A DNA stretch of 64,000 nucleotides, from NCBI GenBank assembly GCA_034521595.1, contig JAXHMG010000003.1:1568001-1632000 (forward strand), read 5' to 3'. The notes beneath the pieces were generated by a model. That model saw nothing but the letters and a program-made list of their open reading frames with translations. It did no database searches and was not told where the DNA came from. Made by a program: the position numbers and the translations under genes. The DNA comes from Gemmatimonadota bacterium. Its GTDB lineage: Bacteria; Gemmatimonadota; Gemmatimonadetes; Longimicrobiales; Gaopeijiaceae. Within the stretch, counting starts at the first letter, position 1; each line of letters opens with the position of its first letter. Of the stretch, positions 26,996 to 31,268 are shown one piece after another.

Positions 26996-27703
26996 TCACC
27001 GCAAGGACGACGAGCCCGCGGTCGAGTGCGACGCGCGACGCACGTTGTAGCGGTATCCGACCCAGATGAGCACCAAGCCGACGAGCTCGGTCATGTAGAG
27101 CACCTCCGTGGCGCCCATGCGAGCCGCCGTTCCCCCGATCCCCGGCAGGACCGCGCCCATCGCGATGTAGACGTTGCCGAGGAAGCGGTGACGCAGGCCC
27201 GGATCTCCGCGGTACCGAAGCGCTGAAACCACGGCCCCTCCCGCCAGCAGGACGAGGGCGTAGGTGTTGATGAACGGGCTGAACATGCGGGCCTCGGGCC
27301 AGGCGAGCGCGGCCCCCGTCAGTCCGTACGGCTCCACGGCCGCGAGATCGATCGGCGAGCGGATCACGACAGTCGCGGCGACCGCCACCAGGAGGCCGAG
27401 CGCGGCCGTCAGCCCATGCGCCACCCGCCGCTGGAGCATGAGGTAGGCGGTCCCTTGAGCCAGCGGCGCGGCACCGAGCAACGCCCCGCTCACATACCAA
27501 GCGCGGAAGACCGGCTCGCTCCAGCCGAACAACGTCGTCACCGACTCGGTCAGGGTGCCGAATCCGTAGCACACCACCCCGATCCCCCACCAGAAGAGAT
27601 GCGGTGCCGGACGCTTGCGGCTCCAGCGACCGAGAACCGCGGGCGCGAACCCGGCCGCGACGAGCGTCGTCGCGAGAGGCAGGTAGTGGATGAGTTCGGA
27701 CAC
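26996..27703 (-). CDS. Hypothetical integral membrane protein (about 7 TM)
   Basis: Successive hydrophobic segments (HLFWWGIGV, AWYVSGALLG, GNVYIAMGAVLPGIGG); GTG 27703. Confidence 0.7.
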   Translation of the reverse strand: MSELIHYLPLATTLVAAGFAPAVLGRWSRKRPAPHLFWWGIGVVCYGFGTLTESVTTLFGWSEPVFRAWYVSGALLGAAPLAQGTAYLMLQRRVAHGLTAALGLLVAVAATVVIRSPIDLAAVEPYGLTGAALAWPEARMFSPFINTYALVLLAGGAVVSALRYRGDPGLRHRFLGNVYIAMGAVLPGIGGTAARMGATEVLYMTELVGLVLIWVGYRYNVRRASHSTAGSSSLR

Positions 27704-27785
27704 GGGCAGGCGGCGATCTCGGAAAGGGATGGGCGCAACGTACGGAACGCCCCCACCCTCGCCAAGCGTGAGCTCCACCGGGGAA

Positions 27786-27830
27786 GAACGACGAAGCCCC
27801 GGAGGCCGCAAAGCCTTCCGGGGCGTTCGT
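27786..27830 (-). terminator. Hairpin downstream of tRNA-Asn
   Basis: GCCCCGGAAGGC / GCCTCCGGGGC stem with a weak pyrimidine tail. Confidence 0.45.
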
Positions 27831-27838
27831 TCTCTTCA

Positions 27839-27911
27839 CTGGGGCGGCAGGGTTCGAACCTGCAACCTCCTGGTTAACAGCCAGGCGCTCTGCCGATTGA
27901 GCTACACCCCA
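27839..27911 (-). tRNA. tRNA-Asn (GTT)
   Basis: TGGGGTG/CGCCCCA acceptor stem; D-arm GCTC...GAGC; anticodon arm CCTGG-CTGTTAA-CCAGG; GGTTCGAACC T-loop; CCA not encoded. Confidence 0.97.
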
Positions 27912-27974
27912 TCGGCTGGAGGAGGGTCACACCGCAGACCCCCGCCGTACGGCGCTCCCCCACCAACCCTACGC

Positions 27975-28010
27975 AAAACGGCCGCGATCCCGGTCGGGGA
28001 TCGCGGCCGT
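27975..28010 (-). terminator. Intrinsic terminator (attenuator) upstream of tRNA-Asn
   Basis: Perfect 14-bp stem ACGGCCGCGATCCC-CGACC-GGGATCGCGGCCGT; its last T begins a TTTT run. Confidence 0.8.
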
Positions 28011-28032
28011 CTCGTCCTTCCGAGTCGTTCGG

Positions 28033-28110
28033 CTACGCGATCCCGCGGTCGCAGTCCCGATTGGGATTACGATTCGGATTGGGATTCGAGTTGCCGCGCG
28101 AGATCGTCAT
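28033..28110 (-). CDS. Asn-rich leader peptide MTISRGNSNPNPNRNPNRDCDRGIA
   Basis: ATG...TAG, 25 aa, six Asn codons at alternate positions; 3' end is complementary to the terminator 5' arm. Confidence 0.8.
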   Translation of the reverse strand: MTISRGNSNPNPNRNPNRDCDRGIA

Positions 28111-28116
28111 GTACCA

Positions 28117-28145
28117 ACCTTCACAAGATACGGGCGATCCGTCAA
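28117..28145 (-). promoter_or_regulatory. Putative promoter of the Asn leader / tRNA-Asn transcript
   Basis: TTGACG (28145-28140), 17-nt spacer ending TGT, GAAGGT (28122-28117), then 6 nt to ATG. Confidence 0.55.
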
Positions 28146-28192: not shown

Positions 28193-28222
28193 CTGGAACG
28201 ATTCCGTTCTTGGTGTTACACT
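28193..28222 (+). promoter_or_regulatory. fur promoter with inverted-repeat operator
   Basis: GGAA-CGA-TTCC (28195-28205); extended -10 TGT-TACACT ends 6 nt before ATG 28229. Confidence 0.55.
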
Positions 28223-28228
28223 CGATTC

Positions 28229-28687
28229 ATGAACGAGTTTGCGGAGGACCTTCGAGCGGCACTCCGGGAGGCGGGCCTTCGGGTCACGGCCCAACGTCTC
28301 GCCATCTTGGGCGTGCTCCGAGACACACCCGGTCATTTGTCCGTCGACCGGGTGACCGAGCAAGTGCGGTCGCGGCTGGGCACGGTATCCCAGCAGGCCG
28401 TCTACGACGCGCTCGGGGTGCTCTCGGGTCTCGGCCTCGCTCGCCGCATCGAGCCCGCGGGGAGCCCCGCGCTCTTCGAGGCCCGCACCGGTGACAACCA
28501 TCACCACGTGGTGTGCCGGCGATGCGGTGCGGTCGAGGACATCGACTGCGCGGTCGGGACCGCCCCCTGCCTCGAAGCCTCCGAGACGCACGGATTCCAG
28601 TTGGATGAGGCGGAAATCACCTTCTGGGGCCTCTGCCCCGGCTGTCAGATGCCTCCCGACCGAGCCGTCGCCCCCACCCCGGGTTGA
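28229..28687 (+). CDS. Fur-family peroxide regulator (FurA/CatR-like)
   Basis: GLRVTAQRLAIL, QAVYDAL, GDNHHHVVCRRCG, DCAVGTAPCL, WGLCPGC. Confidence 0.92.
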   Translation: MNEFAEDLRAALREAGLRVTAQRLAILGVLRDTPGHLSVDRVTEQVRSRLGTVSQQAVYDALGVLSGLGLARRIEPAGSPALFEARTGDNHHHVVCRRCGAVEDIDCAVGTAPCLEASETHGFQLDEAEITFWGLCPGCQMPPDRAVAPTPG

Positions 28688-28735
28688 ACTCGATTCGACC
28701 ATCTCGCGCAGTTACCGACAGGGAGGATGTCAGAC

Positions 28736-30196
28736 ATGGCCAAGGACGACGAAAAGCCGAAAAACACGACCACCGATGCGGGGATCCCCGTATCGAGCGA
28801 CGAGCATTCGCTCACGGTGGGACCCGATGGCCCGATTCTGCTCCACGACCACTACCTCATCGAGCAGATGGCCAACTTCAACCGGGAGCGCATCCCGGAA
28901 CGCCAGCCGCACGCCAAAGGCGCGGGCGCGTTCGGACATTTCGAGGTCACGCAGGACGTGAGCGCCTACACCAAGGCGGCCGTCTTTCAACCCGGGACGA
29001 AGACGGACACCGTGATCCGGTTCTCGTCGGTGGCCGGTGAGCGCGGAAGCCCCGACACCTGGCGGGATCCTCGAGGCTTCGCCCTCAAGTTCTACACCTC
29101 CGAGGGCAACTTCGACATGGTCGGCAACAACACGCCGGTCTTCTTCGTTCGCGATCCGCTCAAGTTCCAGCACTTCATCCGGTCGCAGAAGCGCCGCGCG
29201 GACAGCGGCCTCCGCGATCACGACATGCAGTGGGACTTCTGGACGCTGTCACCGGAATCCGCACATCAGGTCGCCTGGCTCATGGGCGACCGGGGCATCC
29301 CGAAGACGTGGCGGCACATGAACGGCTATTCGAGCCACACGTACATGTGGGTCAATGCCGACGGCGATCGCTTCTGGGTCAAGTATCACTTCAAGACCGA
29401 CCAGGGCATCGACTTCCTCACCCAGGAAGAAGCCGACCGCATCGCGGGCGAAGACGGGGACTACCACCGGCGCGACCTTTTCGAGGCCATCGAGGCGGGG
29501 AACCATCCGAGTTGGACGCTCAAGGTTCAGATCATGCCGTTCGAGGAGGCCAAGACCTACCGATTCAACCCGTTCGATCTGACCAAGGTGTGGCCGCACG
29601 CGGACTACCCGCTGCACGAGGTCGGCAGGCTGACCCTGAATCGCAACCCGACCGACTTCCACACCGAGATCGAGCAGGCGGCCTTCGAGCCGAACAACCT
29701 GGTGCCCGGCACCGGCATCAGCCCGGACAAGATGCTCTTGGGCCGGGTCTTCTCTTACGCGGACGCCCACCGCGCGCGGATGGGCGTCAACTACAAGCAG
29801 ATCCCCGTCAACAAGCCCAAATGTCCCGTACACAACTACAGCAAGGACGGGACGATGCGCGTGGAGAAAGTTTCGGATCCGGTCTACGCCCCGAACTCGA
29901 AGGGGGGGCCAGCCGCCGATCCCGACAAGCATCCCGAAATGGCGACGTGGTACGCAGACGGTGAGTTCGTGCGTGCCGCGTACACGCTTCGCGAAGACGA
30001 CGACGATTGGGGTCAGGCGGGCACGTTGGTCCGCGAGGTGATGGACGACGACGCCAGGGCACGGCTGGTCTCGAACGTGGTCGGTCACCTCTCGGACGGG
30101 GTGTCCGAGCCCGTGCTCGAGCGGGCGGTCCAGTATTGGCGGAACATCGACCAGGACGTGGGAGACCGCATCGCCAAGGGCGTGGGCAAGGGTTGA
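28736..30196 (+). CDS. katA: Monofunctional haem catalase (small subunit)
   Basis: [43 protein letters not shown]. Confidence 0.93.
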
Positions 30197-30329: not shown

Positions 30330-31268
30330 TCAGGTGATCGCTTCCAGCGCTGCCACGGTCTCACGGACATGCTCGGCGCTGGTCTCGAGCGACTTGCGCT
30401 CGTCGTCCTTCAGCTCGACCTCGACCACCTTCTTCAGGCCGCCCTCCCCGAGGAGGCAGGGCACACCGAGGTAGAGGTCCTTCATGCCGTACTCGCCCTG
30501 GAGCCAGGCGGCGCACGGGAGGATGCGGCGCTTGTCCTTCACGATCGCCTCGGCCATCTGGACGGCGGCCGCGGCCGGAGCGTAGTACGCGCTTCCGGTC
30601 TTGAGGTAGCCGACGATCTCCCCGCCACCCTTTCGGGTCCGCTCGACGAGCGCGTCGATGCGGTCCTGCGGCAGGAGCTGCGAGATCGGGATGCCGCTCA
30701 CGGACGTATAGCTCTGCAGCGGCACCATGGTGTCGCCGTGCCCCCCGAGCACGAGGGCCTGGATGTCCTCGACGCTGACATCGAGCTCCTCGGCAATGAA
30801 CGAGCGGTAACGGGCCGTGTCGAGCACGCCGGCCATCCCGATGACGCGCTCACGCGGGAAGCCGCTCGTCTCGAGCGCGACCTGCGCCATGACGTCGAGC
30901 GGGTTCGTGATCATGATGATGATCGCGTCCGGAGCGACCCGCTTGATCTCGTTGGTCACCGACTGGATGACGCCTTTGTTCGTCTTGAGCAGGTCGTCCC
31001 GGCTCATGCCCGGCTTCCGTGCGATGCCGGCCGTGACGATGAAGATCTCCGAGTCGGCGGAAAGGCTGTAGTCGTTCGCACCCTTCACCTGGGAGTCGAA
31101 TCCCTCCACGGGCGCGCTCTCCCACTGATCGAGCGCCTTGCCCTGAGGAATGCCCTCGGCGATGTCGACGAGGATCACCTCGCGCGCGAGCTCCTTGATG
31201 GCGAGGAGGTGGGCGCAGGTCGCCCCGACGTGTCCGGCTCCGACGACGGTAATCTTCTTGGTGCTCAT
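30330..31268 (-). CDS. mdh: Malate dehydrogenase (LDH-like)
   Basis: GAGHVG, TAGIARKPGMSRDDL, GMAGVLDTAR, GGHGD, GSAYYAP. Confidence 0.95.
   Translation of the reverse strand: MSTKKITVVGAGHVGATCAHLLAIKELAREVILVDIAEGIPQGKALDQWESAPVEGFDSQVKGANDYSLSADSEIFIVTAGIARKPGMSRDDLLKTNKGVIQSVTNEIKRVAPDAIIIMITNPLDVMAQVALETSGFPRERVIGMAGVLDTARYRSFIAEELDVSVEDIQALVLGGHGDTMVPLQSYTSVSGIPISQLLPQDRIDALVERTRKGGGEIVGYLKTGSAYYAPAAAAVQMAEAIVKDKRRILPCAAWLQGEYGMKDLYLGVPCLLGEGGLKKVVEVELKDDERKSLETSAEHVRETVAALEAIT

Follow-up and report, generated by a model that had tools for sequence, protein, structure and literature searches.

The second tRNA-Asn gene of a Gemmatimonadota bacterium (family Gaopeijiaceae) appears to be controlled by a leader-peptide attenuator that senses asparagine. 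The element lies on the minus strand of the window, the 64,000-nucleotide stretch of contig JAXHMG010000003.1 that was analyzed, and sequence comparison makes it very likely that the attenuator is real and targets the tRNA gene. The best explanation, with a probability of roughly 0.68, is that a classical attenuator senses the supply of Asn-tRNA and controls this gene, here called tRNA-Asn2 (Asn2), as a carrier for tRNA-dependent Asn synthesis. The purpose of the attenuator is thus probably the synthesis of Asn on tRNA; that Asn2 is a dedicated substrate of this route is a more tentative proposal. Leader-peptide attenuation is known for enzyme and synthetase genes, while the controlled gene here would be a tRNA.

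The promoter, leader ORF, stem, T-run and tRNA listed in the original prediction were all confirmed in place on the minus strand. The unit opens with a −35 element, TTGACG (28140..28145), of which TTGAC is invariant in 10/10 aligned versions. The −10 element, GAAGGT (28117..28122), is a poor match, and it lies 17 nt from the −35 element and 6 nt before the ATG; in relatives, this place reads GATAAT, CATACT or GAGAAT. The leader ORF (28033..28110) encodes an Asn-rich peptide of 25 amino acids, MTISRGNSNPNPNRNPNRDCDRGIA, in which codons 7, 9, 11, 13, 15 and 17 specify Asn (one AAC and five AAT). Conserved segment 1, TCGTAATCCC (28063..28072), would lie under a ribosome stalled at Asn11 or Asn13 and pairs with conserved segment 2, GGGACTGCGAC (28048..28058), which is the family-wide antiterminator partner of the 5′ arm of the terminator. 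The register originally proposed for the antiterminator uses a copy-specific segment, GGGATCGCG..GCCG (28030..28044). The putative intrinsic terminator, or 3:4 helix (27975..28012), consists of a 14-bp core (28010-27978), a loop and a T4 run (27978-27975), with a predicted energy of −32.2 kcal/mol. The tRNA-Asn2 gene (GTT; 27839..27911) begins 63 nt beyond the T-run and does not encode the CCA. A further terminator (27785..27833) closes the unit ahead of a membrane-protein-like ORF (26996-27811), also on the minus strand, which is not conserved beside the tRNA and matches no Pfam or NCBIfam family. The spacer at 27912-27975 folds into a hairpin of −36 kcal/mol that is partly kept within the genus and may influence 5′ processing of the tRNA.

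Six consecutive (AAY NNN) units occur once in the 3.49-Mb genome, and AAT makes up 14.5% of the Asn codons in its long ORFs as against 5/6 in the leader. The fold of the 221-nt leader has a z-score of −4.05, with none of 200 shuffles equally good. One arm of the terminator stem has four exact 14-mer matches genome-wide, two of which are this hairpin itself, so the stem does not belong to a repeat family; with one full model match per genome, a REP-like repeated palindrome was ruled out. A simple promoter/terminator scanner run on the window called neither the leader promoter nor the leader terminator, owing to the poor −10 element and the short U-tract. Among the other tRNAs of the genome, eight more have an upstream ORF holding three cognate residues in nine codons, all for common amino acids.

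The element is conserved. An Asn-rich short ORF with covarying hairpins is found ahead of tRNA-Asn2 in 29 distinct versions (the set after removal of duplicates), which share the TTGAC promoter, a mostly leaderless ORF of 22-25 amino acids and two invariant Asn codons. Asn occupies codons 11 and 13 in 29/29 versions and codons 9 and 15 in 25/29, with variable codons in between. The stop codon TAG is invariant, and AAT accounts for 116 of the 148 leader Asn codons. The distance from TTGAC to the ATG is 35-36 nt in 28/28 versions (within a search window of 32-36 nt), in agreement with the promoter of the original prediction. This spacing would place the start of transcription on the AUG itself, at about 28110, and the ORF would be translated leaderless. 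In one variant, the ATG is shifted 3 nt later. Of the 27 versions in which the gap between the T-run and the tRNA could be measured, eight have a gap of 3-8 nt. This leaves no space for an inner promoter, so in those eight the tRNA would be made by read-through only. Conservation of the reading frame, the Asn codons and the stop codon, of the helices and of the promoter spacing backs the proposal of a ribosome-coupled Asn attenuator aimed at a tRNA gene. One alignment of the element (A4) omits L041, misplaced in alignment A2, along with the truncated L031.

When 151 relatives were searched at the DNA level, the leader turned up both within the genus and outside it, in further genera. A covariance model built from eight versions and run on 151 family genomes (E < 1e-12) gave 16 full-length matches, nine of them training or identical sequences; the seven new ones all precede Asn2. 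A second pattern comprised just the stop and the terminator, with no Asn codon and no tRNA letters. It nonetheless led to an Asn-rich ORF and Asn2 at 14/14 GTDB genome matches and 17/19 metagenome contig matches, although three of the matches are cut by a contig end inside the tRNA. The sets obtained by these searches overlap. Two matches to the covariance model (L068, L073) and two to the pattern (L096, L106) are unrelated terminators. All 14 named records with the element are titled Gemmatimonadota, Gemmatimonadetes, Gemmatimonadales or Longimicrobiales. In the family, the leader is present on only 11 of 36 Asn2 genomes. In another order, 6/29 Asn2 loci carry an Asn leader with a hairpin whose sequences differ from those of the family, and 23/29 have no leader. 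The genes downstream of tRNA-Asn2 differ among the 24 loci examined. One Asn2 locus (L034, genome G146) has an ORF with only two Asn codons, then a strong hairpin and T7, which is possibly a third form of leader.

The alternative helices are conserved in the same 29 versions. The terminator helix is 99.3% paired, with two-sided changes at 4 of 15 pairs. The family-wide 1:2 helix, which spans the end of the Asn run and was also found by RNAalifold, is 84.8% paired (two-sided changes at 4 of 9 pairs). The family-wide 2:3 antiterminator is 89.4% paired and contains two-sided changes as well; none of 500 shuffles reached this value, although the pairing shuffles ignore kinship and the tested structures were drawn from the same sequences. 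Both the 1:2 and 2:3 helices use registers other than those first proposed. The original 1:2 pairing does exist in the copy of the window, but across the 29 versions it is 54.6% paired and does not rise above the shuffles. Likewise, the original antiterminator is a predicted fold of the window's copy, but at 77.5% paired it is no better than the shuffles in the family.

The switch was modeled by equilibrium folding with a ribosome mask reaching 12 nt beyond the A-site codon. A mask at codon 13 leaves the family antiterminator dominant in 28/29 versions; with codon 17, codon 21 or the stop masked, it is dominant in 0/29. The copy of the window is the exception at codon 13, as for stalls at codons 7-17 it adopts its own, originally proposed register. 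This fold is lost when the stop is masked. In the absence of a ribosome, the antiterminator already wins at equilibrium in 20/29 versions. The role of the 1:2 helix would therefore rest on kinetics, and the basal behavior on folding order. The terminator has a strong stem but only three to five T residues in most versions. Three features of a classical attenuator that can be judged from sequence, namely an in-frame Asn-rich ORF, mutually exclusive helices and, in predicted folds, a stall/stop geometry, are present.

The proposed cycle begins with transcription starting on the leader AUG. When Asn-tRNA is short, the ribosome would stall on the AAU-rich run and cover segment 1. This would allow the predicted antiterminator to form, and RNA polymerase would read into tRNA-Asn2. 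When Asn is plentiful, the ribosome would reach the stop codon and cover segment 2, whereupon the terminator would form. In the established pathway, which is presumed to operate here, AspRS charges tRNA-Asn with Asp and GatCAB amidates the product. The regulated gene would be the tRNA cofactor of the Asn route, occupying the slot held by asnB behind a similar leader in relatives. Asn2 could be the preferred substrate of AspRS and GatCAB, or it could merely add carrier capacity.

The genome of the window has two tRNA-Asn(GTT) genes. Asn2 is identical to the canonical copy (G000:C3:2934111), which has its own TTGACA promoter, at 54 of 73 positions. Asn2 has U1-A72, no U20a, G2-C71/G3-C70/G4-C69, A15, G26 and a variable loop of AGGUU. 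The rule for GatCAB substrates, as given in the accessible part of PMC1635274, is that U1-A72 is present and U20a absent. Both Asn2 and the canonical copy comply with this rule. Asn2 shares 51 identities with tRNA-Asp as against about 47 for the canonical copy, making it only slightly more Asp-like, and an origin from tRNA-Asp is not supported. G2-C71 was not taken as a determinant of Asp identity, as it is absent from the identity table in the accessible part of PMC9976931. Despite its divergence from the canonical copy, Asn2 hardly varies across the class, and the canonical tRNA-Asn is also kept in 32 of 34 Asn2 genomes from other orders. U20a has been acquired by the only tRNA-Asn of five genomes without gatB (L213, L215, L216, L222, L224), two of which also show a change to G1-C72, as expected where recognition by GatCAB is no longer needed. 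One gatB genome (L223, G066) carries an unusual gene that resembles tRNA-Asn but has a divergent D-arm.

The window's genome encodes asnS, glnS, gatCAB and one aspS. Neither AsnA nor AsnB was found in this genome, which is 93% complete. Bdellovibrio has the same set of AsnRS, GlnRS and GatCAB with no Asn synthetase and one non-discriminating AspRS, according to the accessible part of PMC4206432. As argued there for Bdellovibrio, GatCAB is best explained as an Asn route when both amide synthetases are present. Since no Asn synthetase was found beside AsnRS and GlnRS, new Asn would have to come via AspRS and GatCAB. In this genome, gatCAB, aspS and asnS were each found to lack an Asn leader upstream.

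It is co-occurrence that suggests a link between Asn2 and Asn synthesis. Among 91 family genomes, Asn2 was found in 36, together with gatB in 36/36 (once as a fragment) and with a true asnB in 0/36. The asnB gene was found in 16 genomes, none of which has gatB, and accordingly in 0/47 of the gatB genomes. Fisher p-values on this table overstate the association, since related genomes do not count as independent cases. Genomes of this kind also frequently have tRNA genes missing from the assembly. The label of Asn2 plus gatB changes about nine times on a tree of AspRS, which comprised 58 rows selected for 20, 19 and 19 genomes per group, with three rows dropped for lack of the motif. In a phylum sample of 301 genomes, gatB was found in 69/69 Asn2 genomes (68/68 of 297 when restricted to published ones), two of these as contig-end fragments. 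The raw tallies include unpublished genomes (G091, G110, G144, G268, G354 or G374), which are excluded from the family table, alignments and leader counts. Ten further genomes with the leader were tested, and a true asnB was found in none. One leader genome (G004) has an AsnB-like gene below the cut-off, and looser AsnB-family genes are common among relatives. TIGR01536 was uninformative as an AsnB marker, as it also hits many other amidotransferases (matches in 113 of 151), and NF006949 was used instead.

The strict Asn2 pattern undercounts. Of the 36 gatB genomes that it scored as negative, 21 have one tRNA-Asn, 14 carry a second, similar tRNA-Asn and one has none detected. A true AsnB was found in 0/5 near-complete gatB genomes with a single tRNA-Asn, which suggests that in other lineages GatCAB can do without Asn2. 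Asn2 is therefore not required wherever GatCAB is kept. The many gatB genomes without Asn2 count against the carrier reading, as do the majority of Asn2 copies that have no leader. The prediction that gatB genomes without Asn2 would lack asnS failed, with asnS in 70/70; glnS was present in 10/10 of such genomes examined. Overall, asnS scored over the cut-off in 138 of 151 genomes and does not separate the groups. Each genome has one AspRS, and no AspRS residue separates Asn2 genomes from the others among the 58 sequences. A loop in the AspRS anticodon domain (L185-L204, L172) has a two-residue deletion in 8/19 gatB-less as against 1/39 gatB genomes, and the deletion may reflect a change toward discrimination by AspRS.

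A similar sensor appears to be used by relatives that have asparagine synthetase. An Asn-rich short ORF was found upstream of 17 of 27 asnB genes, the 27 being drawn from 30 loci after one unpublished locus, one below the cut-off and one with no located start were left out. The same rule selects 12 of 1841 long ORFs in the window's genome, and a similar rule selects 0/20 other tRNA-Asn genes. These asnB leaders (L072, L115-L143) would represent an Asn leader-peptide attenuator spread over three families. At L072, the covariance model matched a leader before a true AsnB gene (774 bits against a cut-off of 499). Hairpins with T-runs were seen after the asnB leader ORFs when the sequences were read, as opposed to being counted by script. 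No Rfam family corresponds to the asnB leader and none was found in the literature search. The asnB leaders resemble the Asn2 leader in their Asn-rich ORF of 23-28 amino acids, the hairpin with a T-run and the overall layout. They differ in that the target is asparagine synthetase B and that a 5′ untranslated part is often present. In contrast to the genomes with an Asn2 leader, family genomes with an asnB leader have neither gatB nor Asn2. The predicted Asn sensor is thus attached to asnB in genomes that have this gene and to Asn2 in those that lack it.

The original prediction had proposed a feedback loop on tRNA supply. On this reading, the attenuator raises total tRNA-Asn, and AsnRS charges Asn2 as just another decoding tRNA. 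The same structural evidence applies to such a loop, AAT-favoring leaders could report slow decoding of AAU, and gatB genomes without Asn2 exist. Asn2 is also an extra copy beside the canonical gene, the existence of which was unknown when the loop was proposed. Nevertheless, a supply loop leaves unexplained the strict association of Asn2 with gatB (36/36) and never with asnB (0/36), the leaders on asnB, and the absence of leaders from 20 other tRNA-Asn genes. An extra tRNA would also be unable to cure a shortage of free Asn for AsnRS. The Asn attenuator on a tRNA has held up, but because Asn2 occurs in the family only with gatB and never with a true asnB, and because a like leader stands on asnB, control of Asn biosynthesis fits better and a supply loop is unlikely. 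Alternatively, the attenuator may work as described while Asn2 acts outside the ribosome, in a process that depends on aminoacyl-tRNA, or has a function in stress that is linked to GatCAB lineages. The divergent yet constant sequence of Asn2 would suit such a specialization, and staphylococcal tRNA-Gly reportedly comprises isoacceptors with split roles. This is quite improbable, as no conserved neighboring gene suggests such a use and a switch responding to Asn starvation suits the synthesis of Asn and not its consumption.

It is still less probable that the leader is a relic of a lost asnB operon that now sets a fixed level of read-through. Leaders on asnB do occur in close kin (G027 and G037 fall within the same AspRS subclade), and one mdh-linked site has apparently lost its leader (L007). 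Against this, the Asn codons are invariant while neighboring codons vary freely, the helices covary across 29 versions, and a second leader family exists in another order. The least probable reading is that there is no regulatory unit, merely a terminator and an incidental repeat before a tRNA with its own promoter. The weak −10 element, the short U-tract, the silence of the scanner and the 63-nt spacer of the window's copy would all agree with it, as would the RNA runs examined, which give no transcript support. Ten RNA runs were compared with the stretch and none matches above 0.07 of it. Four of the runs were examined further and gave only contigs of relatives. In two short contigs a similar hairpin is continuous with the tRNA; these were given no weight because contigs cannot prove a transcript and DNA may be present. 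The spacer of 3-8 nt in eight versions and the uniqueness and conservation of the leader speak against an incidental arrangement.

With biosynthetic control as the preferred reading, its most specific form would be two tRNA-Asn of the same anticodon with split jobs. The housekeeping copy would serve AsnRS, while Asn2, dedicated and tuned to AspRS/GatCAB, would act as a biosynthesis gene under an Asn attenuator, in two orders with different leaders, and be interchangeable with asnB. The odds of this full scheme are put slightly below even. More generally, an attenuator on Asn2 would imply that duplicated tRNAs sharing an anticodon can include a metabolic component under regulation, and that some targets are overlooked when only protein-coding genes are searched for leaders.

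The classical ribosome-mediated attenuators (trp, his, thr, leu, pheA and pheST; PMC1183508) consist of a leader ORF with regulatory codons, 1:2/2:3/3:4 helices and an intrinsic terminator, all of which have predicted counterparts in the Asn2 unit. A bias toward the more starvation-sensitive codon is common to them and the Asn leader. The Asn2 attenuator is unlike them in that it would sense Asn, is mostly leaderless and would regulate a tRNA, the unit containing no protein-coding gene. A T-box riboswitch was rejected, as no T-box family matched in Rfam; in the window region and in eight related loci, only tRNA passes. In Clostridium acetobutylicum, an Asn T-box reportedly controls an aspS2-gatCAB operon. 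There too, Asn-tRNA status switches on the tRNA-dependent Asn route despite the presence of AsnRS. The T-box binds uncharged tRNA and controls enzymes, whereas in the Asn2 unit a ribosome would be the sensor and the tRNA the target. T-box elements may also precede tRNA genes in some Firmicutes, an arrangement that was not encountered in the literature search. These would likewise place a tRNA gene under charging-state control, but by RNA-RNA sensing without translation and with no tie to amino-acid synthesis on that tRNA.

Bdellovibrio, Thermus and Deinococcus also combine AsnRS, GlnRS and GatCAB with no Asn synthetase (PMC4206432, accessible part), and that part of the source describes no second or regulated tRNA-Asn for them. 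Thermus and Deinococcus add a second AspRS, according to the same part, whereas the Asn2 genomes add a second tRNA. The Asn2 unit suggests a direct, testable answer to a question raised there, namely how cells with both AsnRS and GatCAB split the two routes to Asn-tRNA. In a literature search covering few subscription journals and no supplements, no tRNA gene under a leader-peptide attenuator came up, nor did any Asn leader from Gemmatimonadota; supplements of genome-wide leader surveys, such as PMC4833913 (accessible in part), could hold some.

In the window, a fur-family gene and a catalase gene (28229-30196, plus strand) lie between mdh (30330-31268, minus strand) and the attenuator. In at least six relatives, mdh directly precedes the attenuator, and the fur/catalase block therefore looks inserted. 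Near 28195-28207, GGAA..TTCC forms a palindrome that is a candidate box for the fur-family regulator. At an mdh-linked site of a 1.8-Mb genome (L007:1507-1579, G076), the TTGAC promoter is kept and Asn2 follows it directly with no leader, an apparent loss of the attenuator. Another genome (G014) has two copies of Asn2, one with a leader and one without (L023 and L041), in addition to the canonical copy. In the genome of the window, 18 tRNA genes are clustered on contig C1 (G000:C1:50619-57814).
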